Assembly: GCA_016219285.1 (NCBI GenBank)
Contig: JACRNJ010000032.1
Location: 21,721-85,720, forward strand
Origin: Deltaproteobacteria bacterium
Lineage (GTDB): Bacteria > Desulfobacterota > GWC2-55-46 > UBA9637
Direction: 5' to 3'
DNA length: 64,000 nt
In this document: piece after piece, positions 3,388 through 56,067 of the stretch
Position numbering within the stretch: position 1 is the first letter of the stretch
How the letters are laid out: the number at the start of each line of letters is the position of its first letter
The notes under the pieces: generated by a model
What the model was told of the DNA's origin: nothing
The model's database searches: none
What the model saw: only the letters and a program-made list of their open reading frames with translations
Position numbers and translations under genes: made by a program

Positions 3388-3395
3388 AATGTAAA

Positions 3396-4673
3396 ATGCA
3401 AAATGTAAAATGCAAAATTAAGGTAACTTTTTTTGTCTTTTTTATTTTTCTCTCTTGCCTATCCCATGCGCAGGAATTTACCTATGAATTCAGCGGCAAG
3501 ATTATTGAACAGCCCGCATATTATTTTTTAAAAGATGATTATCTCCTGAACCCCAACGGAGAGATACTGGATTTTTCTCTCTCAAAAAACAGGTTTTATG
3601 GCGATATAAATTTCAACCTTGATTACCAGAATTTTAAATTCATCTCAAAATTTAGACCAACAGTTTTATCGGATAAAAAGGATACAAATATAAAAACCAT
3701 TATTGATGACGGGTATCTGGACATTGGTTTTAAAGATAGGTTTTTCCTCTATCTTGGCAAAAGGAATATAAGGGATGGGGTTGGGCTCGGCTCAAATCCT
3801 ACAGATTTCTTAGGTGAAGGAAAAGAGGTTGATATGGCAAAGAGGGAGGAGGAGAGGCGGGTGGAGAGGGAGGGTAATTACCTGATCGGTATGGATACCT
3901 ATTTTAAAGATATTACATTAACTGCAATATTTGCCCCCCATATAAAGGAACTACAGGATGAAAAGGATAGGGTCATTTTAAAGGCAGGTTTTCTGATGGA
4001 GCCGCTCAATACAGACATCTCTTTTCACTATTTTAACAGCAGCATACCGGGGGCGGGCATTAACATATCCACCACCATTGGAGAGAGTCTTGTTCTGCAC
4101 ACAGAGTCAGCCCTTCGATGGGGAAGCGATAGAAAGATAGTCAGGCTCATCCAGGAGGGAAGCCCAAACCTATACGAAATATATCATCCCGATGACAATC
4201 AAACAATCTATCCACATATAGCAGCAGGAGGACATTATACATTTAAAGACGGAACGAATGTTATATTAGAATACCTATATAATGGCGATGGATACAATAG
4301 CGAAGAATGGAATACTCTCAAAGGATTTATAAAATACAGCTATGACGAATACAAAACCGGCTTTTTAAAAGAGCTTATGAAAGGGAACCTACTGCAGGCA
4401 AACGAGATAATGAGATTCAGGGAGTTGAGGAGAAACTATATCTTTGCAAGGATAAGCAACTCCGGCATCACAGAAAAGATAGACGGGGCATTGGTCTTCC
4501 TTTTAAATACAGATGATAAGAGCTTTCTCATTTATCCATCCGTGGATTATAAGATCAAGGGCAATACTACCGTAGGATTTTCTGCCATAATATTTGTCGG
4601 TGAAAATGACACGGAATTTGGTATGACCCACTGGGGGAGCGAAGTTAGTATGGTATATAGGTATTTCTTTTGA
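3396..4673 (+). CDS. putative outer membrane beta-barrel protein
   Basis: Signal peptide ending SHAQEF. The sequence alternates amphipathic beta-like segments rich in Y and G. The C-terminus RYFF ends in an aromatic residue, typical of OMP beta-barrels. It is the last gene of the exporter cluster. Confidence 0.45.
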   Translation: MQNVKCKIKVTFFVFFIFLSCLSHAQEFTYEFSGKIIEQPAYYFLKDDYLLNPNGEILDFSLSKNRFYGDINFNLDYQNFKFISKFRPTVLSDKKDTNIKTIIDDGYLDIGFKDRFFLYLGKRNIRDGVGLGSNPTDFLGEGKEVDMAKREEERRVEREGNYLIGMDTYFKDITLTAIFAPHIKELQDEKDRVILKAGFLMEPLNTDISFHYFNSSIPGAGINISTTIGESLVLHTESALRWGSDRKIVRLIQEGSPNLYEIYHPDDNQTIYPHIAAGGHYTFKDGTNVILEYLYNGDGYNSEEWNTLKGFIKYSYDEYKTGFLKELMKGNLLQANEIMRFRELRRNYIFARISNSGITEKIDGALVFLLNTDDKSFLIYPSVDYKIKGNTTVGFSAIIFVGENDTEFGMTHWGSEVSMVYRYFF

Positions 4674-7065: not shown

Positions 7066-7128
7066 GCAGGGTGGGCTGTGCCCACCGCAAACATTGTCCT
7101 TTGTAATGGTGGGCAAAGCCCACCCTGC
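7066..7128. repeat. REPIN-like palindromic doublet (gggtgggcNNtgcccacc x2, inverted), copy 1 of 3
   Basis: gcagggtgggctgtgcccaccgcaaacattgtcctttgtaatggtgggcaaagcccaccctgc. Each half is itself a palindrome. Near-identical copies lie at 23151-23212 and 49400-49463. Confidence 0.85.
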
Positions 7129-8674: not shown

Positions 8675-8748
8675 AACATAAAATCCTAATGTCTAATTTC
8701 TAATGAAATACCCACGAGCCTTTGGCTCACAAAGGGGCATGAAAATTA

Positions 8749-8836
8749 ACCCCACCCTCACCTTAATCCTCTCCCTGAGGGAGAGGAGACTTTTTTGTTC
8801 CCTCCCATTCAAGGGGAGGGTTAGGGTGGGGATGGG
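8749..8836. repeat. about 88 bp structured palindromic element (copy A), inverted partner at 9879-9963
   Basis: accccaccctcacc...ctccctgagggagagg...ccctcccattcaaggggaggg...gggtggggatggg. The ends are self-complementary and there are two internal mini-hairpins. Confidence 0.8.
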
Positions 8837-8948: not shown

Positions 8949-9839
8949 ATGGCCAAAACCTTGAAATACGCCTACTACCCCGGTTGTGCATCCCAGGCAG
9001 TAACAAAAGAGGCGAATTCAACAACCCGGAAGGTTGCCAAAATACTTGGTATAGAACTCCATGATATGCCAAAGGCAAACTGCTGCGGTGCTGGCCTCTT
9101 GACCGACTACGACTATGACCTTTCTGTCGCCCTGAATGCAAGGATCTTTGCGCAGGCAGAGGAGATAGGCATGGATATAATGACTATATGCTCCACATGC
9201 CTTATGGTGATGTCAACGGCAAACAGGGATTTAAAAAGCGACCCAAAGCTTTTAGAAAAGACAAATGCAATATTGGCAGCGGCAGGTTTACGATACAATG
9301 GCACTATAGAGGTAAAACAGCTTCTTTGGGTTTTAGCTGAAGATTATGGGTTGGAGAATTTGAAGAAGAAAGTGGCAATGCCGTTAAAGAATCTGAAAGT
9401 AGCTCCATTTTACGGATGCCATTCCTTAAGGCCGTCAGATGCATTGGGGTTTGATGACCCTGAAAGGACGTGGTCTCTGGAGGCGGTAATTACAATACTT
9501 GGGGCAGAGGTAGTAGAGTATGAAGGGAAAAACAAGTGCTGCGGATTTCAGGTGGATATGATAACAGAGGATACGGCAGTGGAGATGACAGGAAAGAGGC
9601 TTTTGGATGCTAAAAATGAAGGTGGAAATTGCATGGTTACACCGTGCCCTTTCTGTCATATAAACCTTGACAATTATCAGGGTATGGCAGAGAGAAAACT
9701 AAATATGAAGATAGGCATGCCGGTTTTTCATCTTGCTCAATTGGTTGGCCTTGCCATGGGTATGACAGCCGAGGATCTGGAGCTGTCAAGGCATCTTGTG
9801 TCAGCGAAGGATGTCCTGAAGGAGGCAAATCTTTTATAG
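8949..9839 (+). CDS. CCG-domain protein (HdrB / SdhE / GlpC-like cysteine-rich subunit)
   Basis: Two CCG-type cysteine-rich domains: CxnCCGAG ... CSTC, and CxnCCGF ... CPFC. It pairs with the upstream FrdB-like gene. Confidence 0.7.
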   Translation: MAKTLKYAYYPGCASQAVTKEANSTTRKVAKILGIELHDMPKANCCGAGLLTDYDYDLSVALNARIFAQAEEIGMDIMTICSTCLMVMSTANRDLKSDPKLLEKTNAILAAAGLRYNGTIEVKQLLWVLAEDYGLENLKKKVAMPLKNLKVAPFYGCHSLRPSDALGFDDPERTWSLEAVITILGAEVVEYEGKNKCCGFQVDMITEDTAVEMTGKRLLDAKNEGGNCMVTPCPFCHINLDNYQGMAERKLNMKIGMPVFHLAQLVGLAMGMTAEDLELSRHLVSAKDVLKEANLL

Positions 9840-9878: not shown

Positions 9879-9963
9879 CCCATCCCCACCTTTGTCCTCC
9901 CCTTGAAGGGGAGGAAACTATTTTCCTCTCCCTCAGGGAGAGGATGAAGGTGAGGGTGGGGTT
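9879..9963. repeat. about 88 bp structured palindromic element (copy B, reverse complement of copy A)
   Basis: cccatccccacc...ccccttgaaggggagg...ctccctcagggagagg...ggtgagggtggggtt. This is the reverse complement of 8749-8836, so the pair brackets the CCG gene in inverted orientation. Confidence 0.8.
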
Positions 9964-10025
9964 AAGGGATTTAATGTAAGGTCTCCTATTTTCTACGCTA
10001 CCAAATCTTTTATTAGGAGGTTAAT

Positions 10026-10820: not shown

Positions 10821-11882
10821 ATGTCATTCAAAGATATTTTAGGACATGATAGAGAAATAAGCATTTTGAAGAAAGCCATTTCAAATAATAGAGTTGCTCA
10901 TTCATTTTTATTTGCTGGGCATGAAGGGATAGGCAAACGGCTTGTTGCCATTTCCGTTGCAAAGGCGCTTAACTGCTCTGCTGCAAACAAGAGCCCCTCC
11001 TTATCGCCATTTAACAAAACAGGATGTGATGGAAGTAATAATGATTTTTGCGGGGTTTGTCAAAACTGCAAGGATATAGAGGCCTCTTCATACAGCGATG
11101 TCTTTCTGATTGAGCCGAGAGAGCCGGAATCCAAGGGCGGGAAAATAGACCATATAGCCGGCACAATAAAGATTGATGCTGTGAGAGATGTTCAGCAAAG
11201 GCTGTCTTACAGGGCAGCAAGAGGCGGCAAAAAGGTGTGTATAGTAGACTGCGCCGAGAAGATGAATAAAGAGGCTCAGAATGCATTCCTTAAAACACTT
11301 GAAGAGCCACCTTCTGATTCCATTATAATATTGGTTGTTAGCGATGGCGGAGCCATTTTGCCGACAATAACTTCTCGCTGCCAAAGGATCAATTTTACCC
11401 CGCTGCCGCAAAATGTTATGCTTGACATAGTCGGAGAACGATTGGGGGCAGCAAAAGAAACTGCTGTGCTGCTTGCTTGTTTGAGTGGAGGCAGCATAGG
11501 AAAGGCATTAAACTTGGATATGGATACCATGCTTGAACAAAGGAAAAAGATTGTTGAAGTATTATCACGGTTATCTTTGGATGATGCAGAAGGAATGTTC
11601 AAAGCAGCTGAAAAGATATCAAAAGGAGAGAGGCCTGTAGAGTCTCTGGAGTTTCTCAAAATATGGTATAGAGATATTGCGATATTAAAGGAAGGTGTGG
11701 AGGATATGGTTGTAAATTCAGACCTCCTGCCTGTTTTAAGACAGCATATGGAGCGCCAAACTTTTTCAAGGCTTATATCCGATTTTCAAATGGTGCTAAA
11801 TGCCCAATCTGATATTATGCCGCCAAGGTATGCAAATAAACAATTGACTATTGAAAATTTGCTTATGCAGCTTGCCACATAA
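10821..11882 (+). CDS. holB: DNA polymerase III subunit delta-prime
   Basis: AAA+ clamp-loader N-terminus (AHSFLFAGHEGIGKRLVA), a zinc-module-like CxxC...CxxC segment, and a SRC-like TSRCQ motif. Follows tmk. Confidence 0.8.
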   Translation: MSFKDILGHDREISILKKAISNNRVAHSFLFAGHEGIGKRLVAISVAKALNCSAANKSPSLSPFNKTGCDGSNNDFCGVCQNCKDIEASSYSDVFLIEPREPESKGGKIDHIAGTIKIDAVRDVQQRLSYRAARGGKKVCIVDCAEKMNKEAQNAFLKTLEEPPSDSIIILVVSDGGAILPTITSRCQRINFTPLPQNVMLDIVGERLGAAKETAVLLACLSGGSIGKALNLDMDTMLEQRKKIVEVLSRLSLDDAEGMFKAAEKISKGERPVESLEFLKIWYRDIAILKEGVEDMVVNSDLLPVLRQHMERQTFSRLISDFQMVLNAQSDIMPPRYANKQLTIENLLMQLAT

Positions 11883-12075
11883 TGATTTACGAATTACGAT
11901 TTACGAATTACGATTTTAAATACTTCACCTTACTTGCAAATCATAAATCTATACACAGCGACATAAATAGTTGCGCATACAGAGCGTCAGAACAAAGCAG
12001 ACCGAGGAGCAACACAGGTATGCGAAGTTATGACGCTCTGTATAAAATCGTAAATCATAATGGAGGATTGATATA

Positions 12076-14367: not shown

Positions 14368-14383
14368 AGATTTCAAACCTATA

Positions 14384-14622
14384 GTCAGCGACATAAATTT
14401 GTAGTATGCCGATTTACCCCGTTAGAAGCTTTTCAATTGAAGATTTTGATGAAACTTTATTAACATTAACTCCCTTAAAATGAACTTCTAACGGGGTTTA
14501 TCGGCGATTTTAAACTTGTCCCCGCAGGCTTTAAGCTGGGATACGCCCATGGGGGCACCCAACAGAAAGTTGGGTCGGGCAAACTACATCTACATTATTT
14601 TTATCGTCAACTATAAAGCCTT
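14384..14622. mobile_element. composite/nested MITE-like element (family: gtagtNtgcc...caaactac) directly after the metG stop
   Basis: Shares both ends (agcgacataaatttgtagt...ggcacccaacagaaNgttgggtcgggcaaactac...atttttNtcgtc) with the 45190-45312 copy. It carries an extra internal inverted-repeat insert (ccccgttagaag...cttctaacgggg). Confidence 0.8.
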
Positions 14623-20218: not shown

Positions 20219-20320
20219 ATTCGTGCTAAGAGCATAGCACAAACTTTATGAATTGCAAGGAGGGGCATTCTTTTCTTGAACAATCCATAGAAATTGATAT
20301 TATGATTGAGATTTTAGAAT

Positions 20321-20373
20321 GTAGTTTGCCCATTTATGGGCGTCTTAAAAATCGCCGATAAATCGGCAACTAC
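20321..20373. mobile_element. MITE-like palindromic element, canonical 53 bp copy
   Basis: gtagtt-tgcccatttatgggcg-tcttaaaaat-cgccgataaatcggca-actac. It has terminal inverted repeats and two internal perfect palindromes. Confidence 0.85.
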
Positions 20374-20392
20374 AACTTGAGGTTATAGAACC

Positions 20393-21600: not shown

Positions 21601-22716
21601 ATGTTAATCCTCGGTATTGAATCTTCATGCGATGATATGGCTGCTGCGGTTGTAAAAGACGGCAGGTATATCCTTTCCAATGTTGTGTCTTCTCAAGATG
21701 AGATACATAAAAAATATGGCGGTATTGTGCCTGAACTTGCGTCAAGAAGGCACCTTGAGACAGTTATACCGGTAGTAGAGGAGGCATTAAATCAGGCAAA
21801 AGTAACATTGGATGATATAGATGCCATTGGTGTCACGCAGGGTCCCGGGTTGGTTGGCTCCATACTTGTCGGTCTTTCATTTGCAAAGGCTATCTGCTAT
21901 GTAAAGGACATGTCATTTGTCGGAGTGAATCATATAACAGCGCATCCTATGGCAGTGTTTTTAGAGGCAGGGAGCAGGGAACAGGGAACAGGGAATGGAA
22001 ATGATAATATCCGACCCCCGATCCCTGATCCCCAATATCCGATTTTTCCCTTCATCGCCCTTGTTGTATCAGGCGGGCATACCACACTTTTTAAATTTAA
22101 AGACTTTGATAATTATGAAATCCTTGGCCAAACCAGAGACGACGCGGCAGGAGAGGCGTTTGACAAGGTTGCAAAACTTTTGGGGCTCGGCTATCCGGGC
22201 GGCGCTGTTATAGACAGGCTTGCAAAAAGCGGAAATGTTTCTGCAATAGAGTTTACACGGCCATATATATCAAAGGATACCCTTGATTTCAGCTTCAGCG
22301 GCATTAAGACAGCAGTTCTTAATTATCTTAAGGAAACTGAAAGTCATGGGTCAGGGGTCAGTGGTCAGGGGTCAGGGTTTAAATCGAAAATCGAAAATCG
22401 AAAATCGAAAATCAATATAAACGACCTTGCGGCCAGTTTTCAAGAGGCAATCGTTGATGTGCTGACAGACAAGGCTGTTTCGGCATGCAAGGCTAATAAC
22501 ATAGATAGCCTGGTAGTTTCCGGCGGAGTTGCCTGCAACAGCAGATTGAGAGAAAAAATGCGCATAAAATCTAAAGACAATAGCATAAAGATTTTTATCC
22601 CGGAGCCAGGACTGTGCAGCGATAACGGCGCTATGATTGCGGCGGCAGCGTATCATTTTTTAAAGAATGGAATCAGAGGCGGGCTTGATATGAATGCGAT
22701 ACCAAATATGGAATAA
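21601..22716 (+). CDS. tsaD: tRNA N6-adenosine threonylcarbamoyltransferase TsaD (Kae1/Gcp) carrying two in-frame repeat insertions
   Basis: Conserved motifs LGIESSCDD, GGIVPELASRRH, VSGGHT and GGVACN are present. There are two low-complexity inserts (EQGTGNGND..., HGSGVSGQGSGFKSKIENRKSKI), each encoded by DNA tandem repeats. Confidence 0.9.
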   Translation: MLILGIESSCDDMAAAVVKDGRYILSNVVSSQDEIHKKYGGIVPELASRRHLETVIPVVEEALNQAKVTLDDIDAIGVTQGPGLVGSILVGLSFAKAICYVKDMSFVGVNHITAHPMAVFLEAGSREQGTGNGNDNIRPPIPDPQYPIFPFIALVVSGGHTTLFKFKDFDNYEILGQTRDDAAGEAFDKVAKLLGLGYPGGAVIDRLAKSGNVSAIEFTRPYISKDTLDFSFSGIKTAVLNYLKETESHGSGVSGQGSGFKSKIENRKSKININDLAASFQEAIVDVLTDKAVSACKANNIDSLVVSGGVACNSRLREKMRIKSKDNSIKIFIPEPGLCSDNGAMIAAAAYHFLKNGIRGGLDMNAIPNME

Positions 22717-22721
22717 AGAAT

Positions 22722-22790
22722 GTAGTGTGCCCATTTATGGGCGTATTTAAAAACGTAGATAAACCGATAAGCTGCAAATCATTGACTACA
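22722..22790. mobile_element. MITE-like element, degenerate copy
   Basis: gtagtgtgcccatttatgggcg...cgtagataaaccgataagc...gactacaatc. Confidence 0.6.
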
Positions 22791-22797
22791 ATCAAGA

Positions 22798-23763
22798 TTG
22801 CCGATGTTAAACAAACCAAAGAAAAATTCTAAAACGCCGATAAATCGGCAACTACAATCTTACGGTTTTTCTCCCTTAAAAAGATTCAGCCAAAACTTTC
22901 TCACCGATGAACGGATTGCCGGCAAGATTATTGATGCGTTTGAACTGAAAGAGGACGATACGGTAATAGAAATAGGCCCCGGTCTTGGCATGCTGACAGA
23001 GCGGCTGTTGGACACAGGGGCAAAGGTTCTGGCAATAGAGATAGATAAGGGTTTTGCAGATATTCTTGATAAAAGATTCGGCAGCAGGGATAATTTTGAA
23101 AAAATAATATGTCAAGATGCATTAAAAATTTCGTATAAAGAATTGTTTTGTAGGGTGGGCTGCGCCCACCAAAAACAGACGGATAAAAATGGCGGGCAAA
23201 GCCCGCCCTACAACGATAACAAGAAGCTTGCCCCTGCGGGCATAAAACAGTGGTTTAAGGTTATTTCCAATCTCCCTTACAACATCTCAACACCCATTAT
23301 TTTTAAACTTCTTGAGGAGCGCGAGATATTTTCAATGTTCCTGCTTATGCTGCAAAAAGAGGTGGCCGAACGGATTGTATCGCAGCCTGACACAAAAGAG
23401 TACGGTGTTTTGTCTATATTTGTTCAACTGTTTGCAGATGTAAATATAGAGTTTGATGTGCCGCCATCTTCATTTTATCCAAAACCAAATGTCTATTCTT
23501 CTGTTGTTAGGTTCACTATATTGCAGAAACCGAGAGTTGAAATATATGACATCAGCTTTTTTAAAAGAGTTGTTAAGGCGTCTTTTGGGCAGAGGAGGAA
23601 AACCCTGCTAAATGCCTTAAAGGTTTTAAAACTGACAACCCAGGAGATTAGAAATGCCTTAGAGCAATCTGGTATAGAGCCGCAGGCAAGGGGGGAGACC
23701 CTTAGCCTTAAAGAATTTGGAATATTAAGCAATAACTTGAAGAAAATAGCAGAACATATTTAA
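22798..23763 (+). CDS. rsmA: 16S rRNA (adenine1518/1519-N6)-dimethyltransferase KsgA/RsmA with in-frame REPIN-derived insert
   Basis: Conserved motifs FSQNFL, IEIGPGLGMLT and NLPYNIST are present. A half-MITE (22832-22860) encodes part of the N-terminus. The full REPIN-like doublet at 23151-23212 is translated in frame as CRVGCAHQKQTDKNGGQSPPYN. Confidence 0.85.
   Translation: MPMLNKPKKNSKTPINRQLQSYGFSPLKRFSQNFLTDERIAGKIIDAFELKEDDTVIEIGPGLGMLTERLLDTGAKVLAIEIDKGFADILDKRFGSRDNFEKIICQDALKISYKELFCRVGCAHQKQTDKNGGQSPPYNDNKKLAPAGIKQWFKVISNLPYNISTPIIFKLLEEREIFSMFLLMLQKEVAERIVSQPDTKEYGVLSIFVQLFADVNIEFDVPPSSFYPKPNVYSSVVRFTILQKPRVEIYDISFFKRVVKASFGQRRKTLLNALKVLKLTTQEIRNALEQSGIEPQARGETLSLKEFGILSNNLKKIAEHI
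23151..23212. repeat. REPIN-like palindromic doublet, copy 2 of 3, located inside the rsmA coding sequence
   Basis: tagggtgggctgcgcccaccaaaaacagacggataaaaatggcgggcaaagcccgccctaca. Confidence 0.85.
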
Positions 23764-24233: not shown

Positions 24234-24899
24234 ATGTCCATTTCCGTCATAATTCCAACCTTGAATGAAGAAGATAATCTTGAACATACCTTGAAATCAG
24301 TTGGCCAAGATGCGGAGATTATTATTGCAGACGCCGGAAGCAGTGATTCCACAATCAAAATAGCCAATGGGTTCACAGACAAGATTATCATGTCGGAAAA
24401 AGGAAGAGGCGCTCAGATGGATAACGGGGCAAGAATGGCGACAGGCGATATATTCCTTTTCCTACATGCAGACACAAGGCTTCCTGATGGCTGGATGGAA
24501 AAAGTTGCAGAAGCGCTAAAAGATGCTAAAGTTGTTGGAGGGGGGTTCAGGTTAAAAATAAACTCAGGAAAATTCTCTTTTAGTATTATAGAGGCAATAG
24601 TTAATCTTCGGTCAAGACGCCTTGGCTTTATCTACGGGGACCAGGCTATATTTGTCAGAAGGGATGTCTTTTTATCGGTTGGAGGTTTTATGGGGCTTCC
24701 ACTGATGGAGGATGTGGACTTAATGAGAAGGCTCAAGAAGGTTGGCAAGGTTATTTTAGTGGATGCGCAGGCCTCTACATCTCCGAGGCGCTGGGAGAAG
24801 AGAGGTGTTTTGAGGACAACTTTAAGAAACTGGATGTTTTTGAGCCTTTATTATCTTGGTGTTTCTCCGCAAAAATTATATAAATGTTATTATCAGTAG
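24234..24899 (+). CDS. family 2 glycosyltransferase
   Basis: N-terminal pattern SVIIPTLNEE...IIADAGSSD...GRGAQMDNG...GDIFLFLHADT is a GT-A fold with a DxD region. The ATG at 24234 is preferred over the ORF-track start at 24177, which lies in the hairpin. Confidence 0.7.
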   Translation: MSISVIIPTLNEEDNLEHTLKSVGQDAEIIIADAGSSDSTIKIANGFTDKIIMSEKGRGAQMDNGARMATGDIFLFLHADTRLPDGWMEKVAEALKDAKVVGGGFRLKINSGKFSFSIIEAIVNLRSRRLGFIYGDQAIFVRRDVFLSVGGFMGLPLMEDVDLMRRLKKVGKVILVDAQASTSPRRWEKRGVLRTTLRNWMFLSLYYLGVSPQKLYKCYYQ

Positions 24900-25014
24900 T
24901 CTGCCGATTTATCGGCGATTGTAACTCAAACCTTCAGATTTGAGTTTTTCAAGGCTAAAGCCTTGAGTTACAAAATGCGCCCATAAATGGGCAGGCTGCA
25001 AAAATATTAACTAC
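24896..25014. mobile_element. MITE-like element, inverted orientation with nested internal hairpin insert
   Basis: gtagtctgccgatttatcggcg...(gtaactcaaa...ttgagttac insert)...cgcccataaatgggcag...aactac. Confidence 0.8.
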
Positions 25015-28142: not shown

Positions 28143-29489
28143 TTATTTGGCGCTGACCGGTATTGTAAACCTAAAAGTGGTTCCTTTGTCCAGTTCACTT
28201 TCTATTGAAATAGTGCCGCCGTGCCTCTCAATTATATGCCTTGTCATGGCAAGGCCAAGACCTGTGCCTTTTGTTGTTTTTATAACATTACCAGCCCTGA
28301 AGAATTCTTCAAAGATGTGCGGCATGTCATTTGACGGTATGCCAATCCCTGTATCTTTTATCTCCGCAATAATGTAGCCATTTTTTCGTGAAACCTTTAT
28401 CCAGACATTTCCTCCATGTTGAGTATATTTGAACGCATTGGCAATGAGGTTTAGGAAGGCATAGGTTATTAATTCCCTGTCAGCCTTTATATCTGGCAAC
28501 TGCGCATCAATTTCTATGTTTAACTGTATATCCTTTTCTCCCATCTTCGACGATGCAATCTCCACAGCGGTATCTATAGCCTCTTTTATATTAAATATCT
28601 TCAGATTAAGATTTTTCTCCGCCCTTATTCTGGAGAGATCAAGAAGGTCTTTTGCATAATGATGGAGAAATTCTGTTTTTTTCTGAATTCTCTGCAAAAC
28701 CTCTTTTACCTTTTCATCAAGGGTACCGGCAAACCCGCCTATCACTACCTCCAAAAGGCTCTGAATGGAGGCAAGGGGAGACTTTAAATCATGGCTGACC
28801 ATCTTTACATATTCATCTTTAAGTCTATCCTTTTCCAATAATTTCAGGTGAGCCTCCTCTAACTCTTTTTCCCTGTTTTTAAGCTTTTCTGCCAGGGATG
28901 CAGTGAAAAAGGTGGCGATGAAAATGGTGGATGTCAATACGAATGATATAGCTGCCGTATATATCTTATTTTTGTAAAGGTCTATGCCCAAAAATCCATT
29001 TACAGAGTGGTGAGGTAGAGTGTTTAGATATTCAAGCGTAAAGAGGCCGACTGTCAGAATAGAAATAATGCATGCCTGGATATAGGCCTCTTTTTTTGAG
29101 AGGAGCATGCTCGTAAGTATAGTATGGAAGATGAAATAAAATATAAATGGGTTTTCAGCGCCGCCTGTAAAGTGTATGAGAACAGTCAGGCTCAAAATGT
29201 CCAGCATACTCTGAAGAATCGCAAATCTCCGTATGGTCTTATGCAGATTGCCGGCAGATCTCTTGTTTATATAAAACTTAAAAATGGCATTATAAAGAGC
29301 TATGAATATGGCGATGAGATATACAGGAAGGTCAGGAAAGGAGACATTGAATAGATAGATAGACGTAAACGTTGCGGCAATAATAAATATCACAGCAGCC
29401 CAGCGTATATTTATGAGCCACTTTAGTCTTTCTACGAGTTCTTCTTGCCACAGATCTGTCTTATGCACATTTGTTTGCAGTTGCCGCAT
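28143..29489 (-). CDS. membrane sensor histidine kinase
   Basis: N-terminal 5-6 transmembrane segments, HisKA H-box MVSHDLKSPL, and an HATPase (DTGIGIP...GTGLGLAM). Confidence 0.85.
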   Translation of the reverse strand: MRQLQTNVHKTDLWQEELVERLKWLINIRWAAVIFIIAATFTSIYLFNVSFPDLPVYLIAIFIALYNAIFKFYINKRSAGNLHKTIRRFAILQSMLDILSLTVLIHFTGGAENPFIFYFIFHTILTSMLLSKKEAYIQACIISILTVGLFTLEYLNTLPHHSVNGFLGIDLYKNKIYTAAISFVLTSTIFIATFFTASLAEKLKNREKELEEAHLKLLEKDRLKDEYVKMVSHDLKSPLASIQSLLEVVIGGFAGTLDEKVKEVLQRIQKKTEFLHHYAKDLLDLSRIRAEKNLNLKIFNIKEAIDTAVEIASSKMGEKDIQLNIEIDAQLPDIKADRELITYAFLNLIANAFKYTQHGGNVWIKVSRKNGYIIAEIKDTGIGIPSNDMPHIFEEFFRAGNVIKTTKGTGLGLAMTRHIIERHGGTISIESELDKGTTFRFTIPVSAK

Positions 29490-29530
29490 TTATTGGGCTT
29501 ATTAAAGGCGCCGATAAATCGGCACACTAC
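29476..29530. mobile_element. MITE-like element, degenerate copy
   Basis: gcagttgccgcatttattgggc...ggcgccgataaatcggcacactac. Confidence 0.55.
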
Positions 29531-29913
29531 TTTTTCCTAAGAAGTTTTTCAACTTTTACAAGCAGGTCTTTTGGTTTTATGGGTTTTTCAACCAATTCAT
29601 CCACTGGCAGATAATCTTCGTCGGTTTCTTTGCTGAATTTAAAACCAGTCTCTTTGCCTATAGATGTAAGCATAAGTATTGGTATCTTGGAAAGCTCCGC
29701 ATGGTTTTTTAATTTGTAGCTTGTTTGAAAGCCCTGATCCTTGGTTTTCATTACAACATCAAGGATTATGAGGTCTGGCTTCTCCGCCTCCGCTTTTTTA
29801 TAGCCAGCGTCGCCTTCACTGGCAGATATGACTTTATAACCCTTACTTTCAAGCACTATCTTGATTGCTTCAACTATATCAGCGTCATCGTCAATAATTA
29901 GGATTTTGGACAT
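29527..29913 (-). CDS. single-domain response regulator (CheY-like receiver)
   Basis: ILIIDDD...DLIILDVVM...LMLTS with Asp and Lys at canonical positions. Length 128 aa with no output domain. Confidence 0.85.
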   Translation of the reverse strand: MSKILIIDDDADIVEAIKIVLESKGYKVISASEGDAGYKKAEAEKPDLIILDVVMKTKDQGFQTSYKLKNHAELSKIPILMLTSIGKETGFKFSKETDEDYLPVDELVEKPIKPKDLLVKVEKLLRKK

Positions 29914-32101: not shown

Positions 32102-32723
32102 GTAGGTTGGGTTGAGCAAAGCGAAACCCAACAATTCATTCATACCCTACATCCTCATCAAATTGAATCTCACAACCTGCCCCCCAATCGCTCTTGTAAA
32201 TGCCCTGTTTAACATAACGATGAAAACTTGAATATGCCCAGTCGCGTGGCAATGTTACCAGACTATGTTTAACAGGATTGTAATGGATGTAATTACAATG
32301 CGCCTCAAAATCTTTCTCGTCTCTAATCTGATGCTCCCAAAACCGCCTCTGCCAAACCGCTTGTTCTCCCTTACTTAATTTTGAGGCAGATCTAAAGCCT
32401 TTATATCCATCCTGACATTGTCTGCTAAAATAGCTTTTTATAAGCCCCCATCGCAGAGAAAAATCATTATCGTTGTGCGGCAATGTCCAGATACAGTGAA
32501 TATGATCGGGCAGCAAAACAAATGCGTCAATCCGAAAGGTGTGTCTGTTGATAACATACTGAAACGCTTCTTTTATCAACCGTATGTTTGCTTCATGGCA
32601 TAAAATCCTTTTCCTCCCGTGCGTTACCACCGTAAAGAAAAATGCCGCCCCTTTTGCCTTTGACCTGCGATAACGCATTGCTTTTTATGATTATGTTGGG
32701 TTTCGTTCCTCAACCCAACCTAC
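32102..32723. mobile_element. RAYT (REP-associated tyrosine transposase) unit bounded by hairpin inverted repeats
   Basis: Left end is gtaggttgggttgagcaaagcgaaacccaaca. Right end is tgttgggtttcgttcctcaacccaacctac, its inverse, and each end is an 8-bp-stem hairpin. The unit encloses one transposase gene. Confidence 0.8.
32136..32678 (-). CDS. REP-associated tyrosine transposase (IS200/IS605 TnpA-like, Y1 HUH family)
   Basis: HuH motif LPDHIHCIW and catalytic Tyr region NYIHYNPVKH. Length 180 aa, which is longer than IS200 TnpA and typical of RAYTs. Confidence 0.8.
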   Translation of the reverse strand: MRYRRSKAKGAAFFFTVVTHGRKRILCHEANIRLIKEAFQYVINRHTFRIDAFVLLPDHIHCIWTLPHNDNDFSLRWGLIKSYFSRQCQDGYKGFRSASKLSKGEQAVWQRRFWEHQIRDEKDFEAHCNYIHYNPVKHSLVTLPRDWAYSSFHRYVKQGIYKSDWGAGCEIQFDEDVGYE

Positions 32724-37341: not shown

Positions 37342-37428
37342 CGGCTTTGTAAAAAGTCCATCTGTGGAGCCTGTTCCGAGCAAAGTGAGAAATCTTGGTC
37401 TTCGCTGCGGCTTCTGCGTTCAACACCT

Positions 37429-37483
37429 GTAGTTTGCCCATTTATGGGCGTTTTTTAAAAGCGCCGATAAATCGGCAGACTAC
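37429..37483. mobile_element. MITE-like element, canonical copy
   Basis: gtagtttgcccatttatgggcgttttttaaaagcgccgataaatcggcagactac. Confidence 0.85.
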
Positions 37484-37530
37484 ACCCATATTCTATAGAT
37501 ACAGAAGAAAGAAAAACCATTTTATTATTC

Positions 37531-41376: not shown

Positions 41377-41509
41377 GAAAGATTCAAGATTTAAGATACA
41401 AGATTTAAGATACAAGATGCAATATGCAAGATTCAATATTTATAATTATTTTTGGCTGCAATCTGAAACTTGTAACTTGCAACCATATTCATTGAAAGGA
41501 GATTGAGAT
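41377..41509. repeat. intergenic tandem simple repeat (aagatttaagatacaagat units) plus tgcaa-type tail
   Basis: gattcaagatttaagatacaagatttaagatacaagatgcaatatgcaagattcaa...ctgcaatctgaaacttgtaacttgcaacc. Confidence 0.8.
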
Positions 41510-45183: not shown

Positions 45184-45189
45184 ATTATA

Positions 45190-45312
45190 GGCAGCGACAT
45201 AAATTTGTAGTCTGCCGATTTATCGGCGGTTTTAAAATACGCCCATGGGGCACCCAACAGAAGGTTGGGTCGGGCAAACTACAGCTACTTATTTTTGTCG
45301 TCCACTATAGAA
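45190..45312. mobile_element. MITE-like element (long form) directly after the rnc stop
   Basis: agcgacataaatttgtagtctgccgatttatcggcgg...cgcccatggggcacccaacagaaggttgggtcgggcaaactacagctac...atttttgtcgtc. It is the un-nested counterpart of 14384-14622. Confidence 0.8.
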
Positions 45313-49047: not shown

Positions 49048-49269
49048 TTATGCCATTACCAGTTCTAATTTTTCTTTTGTAGCAGTAGGTAGCCTTACAG
49101 GAGCAAAAAAACTTTCAGGATATAAATAATCCTCCCCTGATTCATCAATAACTCTTATTTGGTGATGTTTTTCAGCCATCCTGTCCGTCAACACCTCATA
49201 TAGTTTTCTTGCCTCCAATGACGATTCGTAGCCACGATTATCTACACATATCATGAAATGCTTTCTCAT
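49048..49269 (-). CDS. small hypothetical protein
   Basis: ORF only, 73 aa. Sits in a decayed region next to a small ORF disrupted by a REP-like element. Confidence 0.3.
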   Translation of the reverse strand: MRKHFMICVDNRGYESSLEARKLYEVLTDRMAEKHHQIRVIDESGEDYLYPESFFAPVRLPTATKEKLELVMA

Positions 49270-49399
49270 AGTTACCTCCTCATAAATACCTTTTGATTTT
49301 TATTTCTTTCTTACCTATGCCGTGTCCTTCATACCAGTGAACTTCCGCCTTCAAAACAGCGCCATCTTCCAGTTCTACATTGCAAATGCCTTTGATCTG

Positions 49400-49463
49400 G
49401 TAGGGTGGGCTATGCCCACCTTTTTGATTGTGCCGCAATTTTGGTGGGCATAGCCCACCCTAC
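49400..49463. repeat. REPIN-like palindromic doublet, copy 3 of 3, interrupting a small ORF
   Basis: gtagggtgggctatgcccacctttttgattgtgccgcaattttggtgggcatagcccaccctac. The minus-strand ORF 49375-49566 reads through it and is then frameshifted. Confidence 0.85.
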
Positions 49464-49583
49464 TACCTTTTCCATGCACCTTGTTTAAGCGATTCAAATT
49501 CTTTATTCCATGCCCTGTTGCAATAATTTCAATCTCCAGAATTTCCCCTTTTATCTTAAAAGGCATATCTCATTTAACCATTT

Positions 49584-49928
49584 TTATGAATTTTTGCATA
49601 GGTATAACAAAGAGCTCAAAAGCGGAAGATTAGCGCCGCCCTTGCCGCCTGCCGCAAAAAATCCCAAATCCTTTTCTATCCCCTTTATCCCCTCCTTTAC
49701 AGCGCCGCAGACCGTTGTAGTAACACCACTGCTGTGCCAGTCAAAACCCAATGCACAGCCAAAGGCCTGAAACCAGTGGGGGTCTGACAATCGTTTTAAA
49801 GTCTCTTCTGGCCCAAACTCCTGTATGATGATTATAATAATCTCCCTCGCAAGCCTCGTCATCCTCTCAAAAAGCCAGCGAGGGGCTTTGCCGCCATGAA
49901 GCGGCAGGTGAGCAATACCAGTTTTCAT
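49584..49928 (-). pseudogene. N-terminal fragment of a DUF763-like protein (truncated)
   Basis: KTGIAHLPLHGGKAPRWLFERMTRLAREI...GPEETLKRLSDPHWFQAFGCALGFDWHSSGVTT matches, from memory, the conserved DUF763 N-terminus. Only 114 aa remain of a family that is usually about 400 aa. Confidence 0.4.
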
Positions 49929-49978: not shown

Positions 49979-52900
49979 ATGCTAAAAAACCCATTACATA
50001 TGCAAGAAAATACAGCCTTGCTTCATGTAAAAGGTTTAGGCTTTTCTGAAGAGGCAAAGACGCTCCAGAACCTAAGGCTTTTAAATGAAACACCTTTTAA
50101 AGAACATATTGAAGAGCTGATAAATCTTATTCTAACCGCACCCTCTCCTGATGATGCCATGAATAATATGGAGAGAGTAGTTTCACAGCTTTACGTAAAA
50201 AGCATAAATGCATTTATAGCTGATAGAGAAAAACTTAAAAATCTCGTCATTATATGCGGCTCATCTAATCTTTTATCAAATACTATTGTAACCAATCTTA
50301 TCTATGCAGAGCAGCTTTTTTTAGAACAAGGCCTTTATAAGAAAAAGGATATAACACTTTTTCTCAAAGAATTAGAAATGGAGGCTCAAAACCTCTCCAA
50401 TCTTAACTCTGCTGCCACGGCGCTTCGTCTTTACAAACAAAAGGAGTATCTGAGGATAGGGACAAGAGATATTCTTGGACTGGCGTCCATGCAAGAAACA
50501 ACATTGGAACTGTCCGACCTTGCAAGCGCATGCCTTGAGATTGCATACAGATTTTGCCTCAAACAACTCAAGGCAGAATACGGGACGCCTCTCTACAAAG
50601 ATATTGACGACAAAGATGTGGAATCAGAATTTGCAGTCATAGGAATGGGAAAGCTGGGCGGCAGGGAGTTAAACTTTAACTCAGATATTGATATTATCTA
50701 TATATATTCCTCTGACAAGGGGGAAACATCCGGAATAGAAAATCCTCCCTCACCCCCCTTTACTAAAGGGGGGATGGGGGGATTTAATAACAAAATATCA
50801 CTCCATGCCTTTTATGTAAAACTCTCAGAGATGATAACAAAAATCATAGGTAATGTGACAGAGGATGGAATTGTATTCAGGGTTGATTTGAATCTCAGGC
50901 CTGAGGGAAAGGGCGGCGACCTTGCCAACTCTATCAGAAGCGCAGAGATTTATTACGAATCATGGGGGCAGGCATGGGAGCGGGCAGCTATGATAAAGGC
51001 AAGGGTTGTTGCAGGAAGCTTAAAACTCGGAGAGGCATTTTTAAGTATGATTGAGCCCTTTGTCTACCGCAGATATCTTGACTTTACGGCTATTGAAGAG
51101 ATACGGGGCATGAAGGAAAAGATTGACGTAAGCCTGCTGCGGGCAGCCCCCGATGCAGTTGATGTCAAATTAGGGGTTGGAGGAATACGAGAGATAGAAT
51201 TCTTTGTTCAGGCTATTCAACTTATAAACGGAGGAAAGGATAAGGCTATCAGGGAGAAGAACAGCCTCCGTGCTATAGAGTTACTAAAACAAAAGGGATA
51301 CATTAATGAACAAGATGCATCTGCAATAAGCAATGCATATATATTTTTAAGAAATTTAGAGCACAGGATTCAGATTGTGGAAGGGAGGCAGACACAGGTA
51401 ATTCCATCAAAGGCAGGGGAGATAGAAAGGCTTGCCAGAATGCTTGGATTTGAAGATACCGCTTCGCCCACTCCACTTGAAGCAGGGGGAAAGATAAGCG
51501 CGGCGGAACAATTCCGGGACGAATATAAAAAACAGACCAACATTGTGCATGAGATATACAACACGCTTTTTTTCAAGGCTTCAAAGGATCTGGATGAAAA
51601 AATATCAAAATATGTGATCCTTATCCTTGGCGAAAGTTTAGATAAGCAGGAAGTGGTCTCAAGATTATCTCAATCCGGCTTCCATGAGCCGGAAGCTGCC
51701 TATGAAAACCTTAAGCTCTTAAAAGACGGGCCTCCCTTTGCACACTTTCCTGTCAGGACAAAGATGCTTTTAAAAAAGATAGCCCCGTTTCTCCTGACCT
51801 GCATTATGGAGTCCCCTGCCCCGGACATGGCACTTAATCACCTTGAACGATTTCTTTCCGCCATCGGCGCAAGAACCACCTTCTATTCGCTCCTTGCAGA
51901 AAACAGGAAGGTAATGGAGCTGCTCGTCAAATTATTTGGCACAAGCATATTTTTGTCAATGGCAATCATTGAGCATCCTGAAAATATTGATACCCTTCTC
52001 TCGCCTGAATTAAACAAGCCATTCAAGAATAAACAAGAGCTTCTGCAAGAACTTTCAGCAATGCTTGATGCGGCTGCAGACCATGAAGAACATCTGGATT
52101 GTATAAGGAGGTTCAGAAATGGCGAGATATTAAGGATAGGGATACATGACATATTTGAAGAACTAAAACCGGCAGAGGTCTCGAGGCAGATTACCTGTCT
52201 CGCAGACGTTTGTCTGATCAAGGCATATGAGATTTCATTGCTGGAGTTGAAAAAAAGATTCGGCACTCCCGGACAAGACGATGGTGAAAATGCTCAGTTT
52301 GCCGTCCTTGCCCTTGGCAAGATGGGCAGCGAGGAACTCATCTACAGCTCGGACCTTGATATAATCTTTATCTATTCAAAAGGCGGAGAAACTTCAGGGC
52401 CGAAGGTCATATCAAATCACGAGTTTTTTGCAAAGTTGTCGCAGCGCATTATATCAACCCTGTCAATCATTACCAGGGAAGGGGTTGCCTTTAAAATTGA
52501 TGCGCGGCTCAGGCCATCCGGCAGCTCAGGCCCCCTTGTCATATCCGAGGATACCTTTATAAAATACCATAAGGAAACCGCTCATATGTGGGAAAAGCAG
52601 GCCATGCTCAAGGCAAAATTTGCTGCAGGGGACGATAAGTTCGGGGCTAAGGTGTTAGATGAAATACAAAAACATATATACGCAGCAGCGCCAAATCATG
52701 AGGATTTGAAAGAACTTTATCGGATTAGGAAACGGATGGAGGCGGAGATTGCTAAAGAAGATTTTGGAAAGTATAATATCAAATTTGGAAAGGGAGGGCT
52801 TGTAGATGTGGAGTTTGCTGTTCAGGTTCTTCAGTTAAAGTTCGGCAGGCAAAAACTATCTATAAGAAAACCAAACACTGCTGATGCAATACATGCATTA

Positions 52901-53209
52901 AAAGATATTGACATAATCTCAAAAACGGATTATGAGATTCTCATAAATGCTTATAATTTCTACAGACTGCTGGAAAACCGCTTGAGGATTGTGCAAAACA
53001 GGGCAGAAGGCGAGATTGTAAAGGATTCCAGAGAACTTCTTATCCTTGCGAAAAGGCTTGGTTACAAAGGTGAGGGTGCCGGCGCAAAACTTCTTGAAGA
53101 TTATCTGAGCCATGCAGCCAAGGTAAGGAATTTATACGAGAGGGTAATGAATTTTTTGGTGAACTGTGATTTTACACCTCATAGCAGAATCGGATGGAGT
53201 GCGCAATAA
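49979..53209 (+). CDS. glnE: bifunctional glutamine synthetase adenylyltransferase/deadenylyltransferase
   Basis: Two nucleotidyltransferase cores (GKLGGRELNFNSDIDIIYIYS and GKMGSEELIYSSDLDIIFIYS). Length 1076 aa. A palindrome-encoded insert lies at 50747-50784. Confidence 0.9.
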   Translation: MLKNPLHMQENTALLHVKGLGFSEEAKTLQNLRLLNETPFKEHIEELINLILTAPSPDDAMNNMERVVSQLYVKSINAFIADREKLKNLVIICGSSNLLSNTIVTNLIYAEQLFLEQGLYKKKDITLFLKELEMEAQNLSNLNSAATALRLYKQKEYLRIGTRDILGLASMQETTLELSDLASACLEIAYRFCLKQLKAEYGTPLYKDIDDKDVESEFAVIGMGKLGGRELNFNSDIDIIYIYSSDKGETSGIENPPSPPFTKGGMGGFNNKISLHAFYVKLSEMITKIIGNVTEDGIVFRVDLNLRPEGKGGDLANSIRSAEIYYESWGQAWERAAMIKARVVAGSLKLGEAFLSMIEPFVYRRYLDFTAIEEIRGMKEKIDVSLLRAAPDAVDVKLGVGGIREIEFFVQAIQLINGGKDKAIREKNSLRAIELLKQKGYINEQDASAISNAYIFLRNLEHRIQIVEGRQTQVIPSKAGEIERLARMLGFEDTASPTPLEAGGKISAAEQFRDEYKKQTNIVHEIYNTLFFKASKDLDEKISKYVILILGESLDKQEVVSRLSQSGFHEPEAAYENLKLLKDGPPFAHFPVRTKMLLKKIAPFLLTCIMESPAPDMALNHLERFLSAIGARTTFYSLLAENRKVMELLVKLFGTSIFLSMAIIEHPENIDTLLSPELNKPFKNKQELLQELSAMLDAAADHEEHLDCIRRFRNGEILRIGIHDIFEELKPAEVSRQITCLADVCLIKAYEISLLELKKRFGTPGQDDGENAQFAVLALGKMGSEELIYSSDLDIIFIYSKGGETSGPKVISNHEFFAKLSQRIISTLSIITREGVAFKIDARLRPSGSSGPLVISEDTFIKYHKETAHMWEKQAMLKAKFAAGDDKFGAKVLDEIQKHIYAAAPNHEDLKELYRIRKRMEAEIAKEDFGKYNIKFGKGGLVDVEFAVQVLQLKFGRQKLSIRKPNTADAIHALKDIDIISKTDYEILINAYNFYRLLENRLRIVQNRAEGEIVKDSRELLILAKRLGYKGEGAGAKLLEDYLSHAAKVRNLYERVMNFLVNCDFTPHSRIGWSAQ

Positions 53210-54513: not shown

Positions 54514-54586
54514 AAAAAAATTGTAGATTTACGAATTACGAATTACGATTTAAAATCTAAAATCATAAATCTAAAATAGTAAATCC
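54514..54586. repeat. intergenic tandem simple repeat (attacga / aaatcta units)
   Basis: gtagatttacgaattacgaattacgatttaaaatctaaaatcataaatctaaaatagtaaatc. Confidence 0.8.
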
Positions 54587-55246: not shown

Positions 55247-56067
55247 TAAAATTCTCCCGGCAGAAGAAAACCGTATTTTTTCATGATTGGCCTGCCTATA
55301 GGGCTGGTTACATAGTGTATAAATTCCCTTGCCTCTTTTTCAGCCTTTGTCTTTTTTATCACAGCCGCCGCCTGATTGATAGGGTTATGAAGGATATTAT
55401 CAATAGGTGTATAGGTTATTTCAGGCACATTGGCAACCGATAATGCAATAATGCCAACAGGCACATCTCCTGTCTGGAGATACTGCAATGCCTGTCTTAT
55501 AATTTCGCCATAAACAAGTTTGGGTTTAAGTTTATCCCATAATTCAAGTTTTAGCAGTGCCTCTTTTGCGGCAATGCCATAAGGCGCATGGTCTGGATTG
55601 GCAATAGAAATCTTTTTAATAGACGGGTCAAGGAGGTCTTCAAGTTTTTTTGCGTTTATCCCATATGTTTTATTCGCAGCCAGAACGATCCTGCCCTGGG
55701 CATACAGTTTTTGTGTATCTGGAATAATGAGCCCGCCGTTTTTTAATTCATCAATATATTTTTCGTTGGCAGCAAAAAAAATATCAAATGGGGCGCCGTT
55801 TTCTATTTGCCTGGCAAGCATGCCTGTGGAACCGAATGACAGTACAACCCTCGTGCCGGTATTTATCTCAAATTGTTTGGCTATTTCCTTTAATGCAAAA
55901 GAAAGGTCGCTGGCGGCGGCAATAGTGAGAGATTTTTGTTCCGCAAAAATAGCAGCAGGCAGTAGGCAGTAGGCAGTAAGCAGTAACAGGATTTTAGATT
56001 TTAGATTTACGATTTTAGATTTATGATTTTTTAATTCGTAATTCGTAATTCGTAATTCGTAAATCAT
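55246..56067 (-). CDS. modA: molybdate-binding periplasmic protein ModA; N-terminus and start codon encoded by an intergenic-type tandem repeat
   Basis: Mature part LTIAAASDLSFALKEIAKQFE...GTRVVLSFGSTGMLARQIENGAPFDIFFAA is the ModA fold. The only in-frame canonical start is the ATG at 56067, inside the repeat atgatttacgaattacgaattacg. Confidence 0.8.
   Translation of the reverse strand: MIYELRITNYELKNHKSKIVNLKSKILLLLTAYCLLPAAIFAEQKSLTIAAASDLSFALKEIAKQFEINTGTRVVLSFGSTGMLARQIENGAPFDIFFAANEKYIDELKNGGLIIPDTQKLYAQGRIVLAANKTYGINAKKLEDLLDPSIKKISIANPDHAPYGIAAKEALLKLELWDKLKPKLVYGEIIRQALQYLQTGDVPVGIIALSVANVPEITYTPIDNILHNPINQAAAVIKKTKAEKEAREFIHYVTSPIGRPIMKKYGFLLPGEF
55985..56066. repeat. tandem simple repeat (gattttagat and aattcgt units) spanning the gpsA-modA junction
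   Basis: gattttagattttagatttacgattttagatttatgattttttaattcgtaattcgtaattcgtaattcgtaaatcat. Confidence 0.85.

Follow-up and report, generated by a model that had tools for sequence, protein, structure and literature searches.

The ksgA gene of an uncultured groundwater 'Deltaproteobacteria' MAG embeds a complete REPIN-like doublet, that is, two REP units in inverted orientation, which lies in the reading frame of an intact and conserved gene and is missing from syntenic orthologues. On the basis of these three findings, we conclude that the insertion was tolerated within the coding sequence. This is in agreement with a sequence-only reading of the same DNA, which had recognised here a phenomenon of the Rickettsia palindromic element (RPE) type involving a REPIN-like element. 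We suggest, with a probability of about 0.8 for the explanation as a whole, that a doublet of the RAYT type was inserted once, was tolerated in a loop of KsgA, and was then spread by short-patch recombination. In the following, "the window" is the whole stretch of 64,000 nucleotides that was analysed, whose features are listed in Table 1; L numbers designate the loci compared with it.

Table 1. Repeats and genes of the window discussed in the text.
Positions	Strand	Feature	Details
7066..7128	.	Family-A REP doublet, intergenic	Tag GCAG, not GTAG
22721..22743	+	Left half of family-B doublet	TGTAGTGTGCCCATTTATGGGCG; tsaD-ksgA spacer, just after the tsaD stop
22804..23763	+	ksgA/rsmA CDS	319 aa from ATG at 22804; alternative TTG start at 22798
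22831..22857	+	Right half of family-B doublet	AAAACGCCGATAAATCGGCAACTACAA; read as KTPINRQLQ within the KsgA N-terminal extension
23146..23226	+	81-nt patch	FCRVGCAHQKQTDKNGGQSPPYNDNKK; 21 nt (e.g., AGKYGKK) in insert-less orthologues
23150..23170	+	Left REP unit	GTAGGGTGGGCtgcGCCCACC; GTAG tag and 7-bp GC-rich hairpin
23171..23190	.	Doublet spacer	AAAAACAGACGGATAAAAAT; unique to the ksgA copy
23191..23211	-	Right REP unit, inverted	GTAGGGCGGGCtttGCCCGCC on the minus strand
23227..23253	+	Separate loop extension, 27 nt	LAPAGIKQW; 5-bp mini-hairpin TGCCC/GGGCA
32102..32133	+	REP flanking the RAYT gene	GTAGGTTGGGTTgagcaaagcgaAACCCAACA; form related to family A, hairpin different
32136..32678	-	RAYT gene, 180 aa	NF047646, 193 bits (cut-off 80)
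32694..32723	-	Inverted partner REP, other side of the RAYT gene	
49280..49566	-	Remains of a conserved hypothetical gene (76 aa) interrupted by a doublet	Post-doublet part IKGICNVELEDGAVLKAEVHWYEGHGIGKKEIKIKRYL out of frame
49400..49463	.	Family-A REP doublet within a small minus-strand gene	GTAG tags at 49400 and 49463

The doublet in ksgA and its place in the protein

The host ORF encodes the 16S rRNA dimethyltransferase KsgA/RsmA, as revealed by its matches to the Pfam family RrnaAD (9e-60) and to the equivalog-level profile TIGR00755 (266 bits, with a cut-off of 171), and the gene order around it, tsaD-ksgA-cutA-GT2-pyk, is common to the orthologue loci. The protein does not differ from an NCBI entry designated 'MAG: Deltaproteobacteria bacterium'. 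The catalytic motifs, including the SAM-binding and the NLPY ones, are invariant across the orthologue alignment. Purifying selection acts on ksgA, the amino acid identity with the relatives (76-81%) being much higher than that at third codon positions (45-63%).

The doublet occupies positions 23150-23211, so that the sequence-only reading, which had located it at 23151-23212, was right about a real 62-nt element and wrong by one base about its position. It consists of GTAGGGTGGGCtgcGCCCACC and GGCGGGCaaaGCCCGCCCTAC separated by a 20-nt spacer (written out, GTAGGGTGGGCTGCGCCCACC and GGCGGGCAAAGCCCGCCCTAC) and, as is typical of GTAG-type REPs, it bears a GTAG tag at both ends, at 23150 on the plus strand and at 23211 on the minus strand. 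The right hairpin departs from the family consensus GGTGGGC/GCCCACC by T>C in one arm and a matching A>G in the other, so that the arms still pair, and the entire region is predicted to fold into one long hairpin, both as RNA (-41.9 kcal/mol, z = -5.7) and as DNA (z = -5.0). In the frame of ksgA the doublet is read as CRVGCAHQKQTDKNGGQSPPYN. Two of the six frames of the doublet, with the TAG triplet of the tag in phase, are closed; the other four are open. The peptide that the doublet encodes is hydrophilic and rich in Gly and Pro, and those predicted from the insert-bearing stretch of KsgA include VGCAHQK, GGQSPPYN, and NGGQSPPYNDNK.

Both the translated ORF and the alignment place the insert where it had been proposed to be, i.e., between the DALK motif of the SAM-binding region and NLPYNIS, after the helix that follows DALK and before the strand leading into NLPYNIS. 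The passage from 21 to 81 nt in the patch containing the doublet corresponds to a gain of 60 nt, that is, of 20 codons; a clean insertion was not recovered from the orthologue alignment at this patch, with no target duplication or exact junction definable. The adjacent 27-nt segment accounts for nine further codons; L006 and L009 have it, too, whereas L001, L004, L005, L007, and L008 lack it. As no second copy of this segment was found in the window or among the related loci, we treated it as a separate loop extension rather than as a mobile element. In total, KsgA is 29 residues longer than its nearest empty orthologues and 26 residues longer than B. subtilis KsgA. Hence, the extra length of about 25 residues formerly ascribed to the doublet does exist, but not all of it is REP, because the patch contributes 20 residues and the unrelated segment nine.

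The mapping of the insert onto the structure, which the sequence-only reading had indicated as a check, was performed on an AlphaFold2 model whose alignment input consisted of 23 orthologues. The mean pLDDT is 82, and values below 50 are found only at residues 1-27 and 121-147, corresponding to the N-terminal extension and to the insert, respectively. The best Foldseek matches of the model are solved KsgA structures (6ift, E = 1e-29), and the match breaks at query residues 115-151, opposite 11 residues of the B. subtilis enzyme. The insert and the N-terminal extension would thus represent low-confidence parts of a confidently predicted KsgA fold, and the former is predicted to form a flexible surface loop; as far as the model can be trusted, we are dealing with an in-frame insert on the surface of a protein whose fold is preserved, as in the case of RPEs.

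Filled and empty alleles and the history of the insert

The comparison of KsgA homologues, suggested in the sequence-only reading as well, revealed empty orthologous sites. The doublet is absent from the syntenic orthologues L005 and L007 (about 80% nucleotide identity) and L008 (94%), and these loci, together with L009, possess a 21-nt loop, such as GCCGGCAAATACGGCAAGAAA (AGKYGKK), opposite the 81 nt of the window. Filled alleles, sharing the same spacer and flanks, were found in the window itself (NCBI MAG), in L001-L003 (three Logan runs), in L004 (ENA), and in L130 (JGI), the last being a second deposited assembly in which the L004-type allele recurs. The reading frame is intact in the four separately assembled alleles, despite a 3-nt indel in L001.

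The degree of divergence of the doublet is not that of the gene in which it resides. The window and L004 ksgA sequences are 68.5% identical on shared columns (45% at third positions), and their doublets differ at one of 62 nt; the window and L001 genes are 74.9% identical, with doublets that differ at four of 62 nt, plus an in-frame AGT. In L001, the right hairpin is decayed (GCCTGTCC) and the peptide is changed (PP>LS, T>V, and an additional S), and the ORF is still open. L004 and L008 share 93.9% of their ksgA nucleotides, and yet L008 is empty. Of the differences between L004 and L008, all the 21 located within alignment columns 389-537 match the window or the L001 allele (elsewhere this is true for 16 of 41), and eight of these 21 fall in the 45 nt preceding the doublet; the mosaic tract carrying the insert in L004 is about 150 nt long. 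The ksgA gene of the window is a mosaic, too: its 5' third is 87-98% identical to L005/L006, the patch is 86-96% identical to L001/L004, and the 3' part (two-thirds of the gene) shows an identity of about 78% with any of the alleles compared. As for the adjacent gene, the TsaD protein of the window shows 78-83% identity to those of L005/L006.

A near-identical insert in diverged ksgA genes, along with a mosaic tract of about 150 nt, argues for spreading by recombination rather than for repeated transposition. On these sequence comparisons, the data are best explained by an insertion that would have arisen once and by an insert-bearing segment that would have moved between lineages through short-patch homologous recombination. 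Vertical descent accompanied by many precise losses was also considered and does not fit the mosaic tracts; had a master copy inserted independently in each case, shared flanks would not be expected. A less clear case is that of L006, whose site reads FCRGGKK and which, by eye, matches a hypothetical deletion scar at 16 of 21 nt and the loop of its sister at 13 of 21; it could be either the scar left by the deletion of the doublet or a pre-insertion allele.

According to the scenario that we propose, a GTAG-tagged, 62-nt REPIN-like doublet of a family mobilised by RAYT tyrosine transposases would have entered the ksgA segment coding for a surface loop a single time, the original transposition being presumably catalysed by a RAYT. 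The doublet would be transcribed and, most probably, translated as part of KsgA. Since the gain of 60 nt is a multiple of three, four of the six frames are open, and the peptide is hydrophilic, the enzyme would keep its fold and the allele would survive, presumably as a passenger that is neutral or nearly so. The insert segment would then have been passed among related, co-occurring groundwater lineages by recombination within the conserved ksgA flanks, and it is this recombination that would account for both its patchy distribution and its near-identity across diverged backgrounds.

The KsgA loop appears to be permissive to such insertions, since in another clade it is occupied by a different GTAG palindrome: L131 and L132 harbor GTAGGGGCGCACGGCCGTACGCCCCTAC and GTAGTGGCGCACGGCCGTGCGCCACTAC, respectively, with changes on both arms and the pairing kept, and the sister locus L133 is empty. 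The finding that two GTAG REP families lie in the same loop in different clades, which means that the site was hit or tolerated repeatedly, might speak for a hot spot into which the same REPIN master copy was transposed independently in three lineages and without any recombination. It is also known that IS200/IS605-type enzymes have target preferences, which counts in the same direction. However, the shared sequence outlasts the doublet and includes the flanks TTTTGT and ACAAC..ACAAGAAG, and L004 displays the eight further donor-type substitutions upstream; moreover, the spacers of the other two doublets of the window are completely different from, and unrelated to, the ksgA one, and a pattern specific for the latter matched ksgA alone in the JGI metagenomes. 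For this reason, independent transposition seems quite improbable to us. Least probable of all are a pseudogene, an assembly artefact, or the bypass or removal of the insert before translation. All the sequences do come from metagenome assemblies, and repeats can mislead assemblers, but the same insert was recovered from NCBI, Logan, ENA, and JGI assemblies. Besides, a full-length ORF with all its motifs, an amino acid identity far above the third-position identity, and an indel among alleles that is a multiple of three are at odds with a pseudogene. The intron or intein alternative, raised in the sequence-only reading, was looked at as well, and 62 nt are far too short for a group I/II intron or an intein; in addition, no Rfam match was found in the window and no extra Pfam domain in the insert-bearing KsgA.

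Other possibilities concern the force(s) that might have favored the insert. It could have been co-opted, in the sense that the loop or the mRNA/DNA hairpin would be functional, for instance in 30S recognition, in ksgA regulation, or as a protein/DNA-binding site. Selection would then explain the near-identity across lineages (one difference in 62 nt within genes that are 68.5% identical) and the import of the segment into new backgrounds, at least two of which it entered by recombination; the strong predicted structure of the doublet, the paired change of its right hairpin, and the compensating changes between the L131 and L132 palindromes might be regarded in the same light. Nevertheless, we consider co-option improbable: most close relatives lack the insert and have an ordinary 7-residue loop, L001 has kept its ORF with a decayed hairpin and a changed peptide, the peptide is located in a low-confidence loop of the AlphaFold2 model, and recent transfer alone explains the near-identity. 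Rather unlikely, in our opinion, is also that the insert-bearing segment is a spreading cassette, because the doublet promotes its own transfer or because the altered loop is favored by selection. In the former case, the site might be nicked by a RAYT, or broken because of the hairpin, and then repaired with an insert-bearing allele as template, in a homing-like process involving a non-coding palindrome.

If the insertion and recombination scenario is correct, it offers a route for the spreading of REP elements that needs no transposition. The case is unusually well documented, since filled and empty alleles are available in conserved synteny and the element would have travelled inside a short recombination tract. 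Moreover, REPs of at least two different families have found room in a single surface loop of KsgA. From a practical viewpoint, inserts of this kind inflate or fragment the alignments of MAG marker genes and can be mistaken for lineage-specific domains.

Family A, the RAYT genes, and the known palindromic elements

The element in ksgA belongs to a repeat family, here called family A, whose hairpin motif was searched for in the 64-kb window using shuffled sequences as a chance control. The 10-12 matches obtained are all located at three doublet sites, whereas 0.08-0.11 were expected from the shuffles. The idea that the ksgA doublet is related to the copies at 7066-7128 and 49400-49463 is therefore corroborated, in that the motif lies at exactly these sites and three doublets are dispersed over a region for which about 0.1 matches were expected. 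All three are inverted pairs with spacers of 20-22 nt, as in REPINs. The other two copies had been described as intergenic, which holds for the first of them; the second one sits inside, and disrupts, a small gene of a 76-aa family. The intact homologues of the split gene (80-86% identity) read ...LNRLNKVYGKASWRKLKGICNVELEDG..., and Pfam has no family for it. Thus, two of the three doublets of the window are found within genes, one in frame in a housekeeping gene (ksgA) and one, destructive, in a small accessory gene, which is the pattern to be expected if insertion is random and selection acts afterwards. In the minus-strand region 49280-49928, a DUF763 gene cut to its first ~114 residues (49584-49928) is followed by the REP-disrupted gene and then by a 73-aa ORF (49048-49269), and the whole region looks like decayed accessory DNA.

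The scan of a contig collection revealed the 19-nt family-A REP motif in more than 120 stretches belonging to many phyla, among the matches listed, including Cyanobacteria, Planctomycetota, Poribacteria, Nitrospirota, and others. In L088 (Nitrospirota) and L067 (Isosphaeraceae), family-A REPs are present on both sides of a Y1-transposase (RAYT) gene, and the L088 protein matches NF047646, 'REP-associated tyrosine transposase', with 190 bits. Within the 64-kb window, no RAYT gene flanked by family-A REPs was found; the RAYT present there has a different flanking REP and constitutes a complete unit (32102-32723) with inverted flanking REPs GTAGGTTGGGTT...AACCCAAC (also written GTAGGTTGGGTT...AACCCAACA) that are not of the ksgA family. 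In-frame family-A REPs were also detected in two loci of Planctomycetota, the only ones whose REP-spanning ORFs were analysed with Pfam: a penicillin-binding-protein transpeptidase gene in L011 (three units) and a PMT_2 glycosyltransferase gene in L080 (a doublet). Other candidates were discarded, namely the long REP-spanning ORFs of the GC-rich loci L044, L084, L087, L116, and L117, judged from their translation to be likely spurious, and those of L070, L051, and L072, in which the REP is probably upstream of the real start.

Two super-families of REPs, GTAG and CGTC, were distinguished across eight phyla by Di Nocera et al. (2013; PMC3733652). In the same paper, intragenic singlets and dimers of both super-families are listed for Opitutus terrae, Rickettsia conorii, Thioalkalivibrio, Pseudomonas putida, and others, more than half of the intragenic inserts being dimers or groups that encode 20-30 residues; its supplement reports a CGTC dimer at the N-terminus of the R. 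conorii dimethyladenosine transferase (KsgA). The ksgA element shares with the GTAG REPs/REPINs the GTAG tag, the GC-rich hairpin, the inverted pair giving rise to a larger hairpin, the multi-copy nature, and the fact that family-A REPs flank RAYT genes (NF047646) in other genomes; it shares with the intragenic dimers an encoded stretch of 20-30 residues and a host ORF that stays open. Unlike those cases, its host is an uncultured groundwater 'Deltaproteobacteria' MAG, and this copy appears to have been spread by host-gene recombination. The family-A REP (GTAGGGTGGGC nnn GCCCACC) has no match in the text or the supplements of PMC3733652, either as GGGTGGGC or GCCCACC or through the peptides that it typically encodes. 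Intragenic REP dimers are therefore already known, and what is new with respect to that paper is the family-A sequence and the host lineage; the suggestion of an RPE-type phenomenon in a new lineage with a REPIN-type element stands for the lineage and has to be given up as regards the type of element, since intragenic cases of the REP type had already been listed.

RPEs have been summarised as an extreme case of in-frame MITE fusions in a 2024 review (PMC10969869). Like the ksgA element, they are selfish palindromes lying in frame in housekeeping genes and tolerated at surface regions (Ogata et al. 2000; PMC10969869). Nonetheless, RPE-1 is about 100-150 bp long, and RPEs make up different sequence families restricted to Rickettsia, whereas the element described here measures 62 nt, is a RAYT-associated REP doublet, and resides in a free-living lineage. 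Its behavior is that of an RPE, but size and host set it apart from these elements. RAYT-type REP doublets would thus be tolerated in conserved housekeeping genes of free-living, uncultured groundwater bacteria, beyond Rickettsia and a few cultured species.

A further parallel is represented by cyanobacteria, in which Elhai and colleagues are said to have described, in 2008, small dispersed repeats/MITEs inside genes. These are reportedly very short mobile palindromes located in genes and in each other, and they reportedly give rise to variable loop insertions among close relatives, as the ksgA element does; they are said to belong to different sequence families. We know of no GTAG/RAYT link described for them.

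The N-terminal family-B doublet and the neighboring repeats

A second doublet family, B (TGTAGTTTGCCCATTTATGGGCG ... CGCCGATAAATCGGCAGACTACA), is represented by at least six copies in the window and contributes to the N-terminal extension of KsgA. The sequence at 22831-22857 matches the right half of this family (CGCCGATAAATCGGCAACTACA), and the start codon of ksgA falls between the two halves, an arrangement also found in L007. Since there is no in-frame start codon downstream of the right half, KTPINRQLQ must be translated, so that the proposal of an N-terminus derived from a half-copy of another repeat family proved correct; the orthologues devoid of this half start with MKNIPSLLKSYG. Family B is more abundant than the ksgA family and has unlike hairpins, GCCCAT/ATGGGC and GCCGAT/ATCGGC. 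Its sites are 14380-14615, 20316-20375, 22717-22857, 24895-24992, 29487-29531, 37428-37484, and 45186-45309, and some of the copies are split by 50-90 nt or fused to a CCCAAC/GTTGGG hairpin. Additional in-frame sequences were observed in the ksgA genes of two relatives, that is, IRLPVCHRTGRRRQV inside the N-terminal family-B half in L006 (1127-2056, P0005) and PMSRSVGIKGEAG before the GxGxG motif in L007 (3145-4035, P0006).

The upstream gene tsaD (21601-22716) contains two in-frame low-complexity inserts, at 21967-22050 and 22334-22423, one of which is GGGAACAGGGAAC...GATCCCTGATCCCC and the other (GGTCAGG)x4 followed by (AAATCGA)x4. Both sites hold a different repeat-derived sequence in every relative, with almost none in L006. 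The TsaD proteins of the relatives possess two hypervariable, repeat-derived loops, and that of L007 has an in-frame pair of GTAGGGGCGAAC-type REPs.

Repeats of other types are scattered throughout the window. The ORF 8949-9839 is bordered on both sides by a longer composite repeat (CCCACCCTCACCTTAATCCTCTCCCTGAGGGAGAGGAG...GGGAGGG), whose copies at 8706-8836 and 9879-9965 are inverted with respect to each other. AT-rich short tandem motifs (AAGATGCAAGATTCAA, TGTAAAATGCAAAA, and GATTTACGAATTACGA) are located at gene boundaries (2626-2655, 3390-3421, 11882-11921, 41407-41436, 54526-54585, 55998-56067, and 57847-57878), several of them overlapping the N-termini of predicted ORFs. A glnE-like ORF (49979-53209, 1076 aa) contains GIENPPSPPFTKGGMGGFNNK, a peptide of the type encoded by short G/C-run palindromes, which may be an in-frame repeat. 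Lastly, other Y1_Tnp genes are inserted in the same cutA-GT2 neighborhood in two relatives, L132 (14788-15486) and L009 (3598-4545), and the latter encodes a protein of 315 aa with a helix-turn-helix-like region at its C-terminus.
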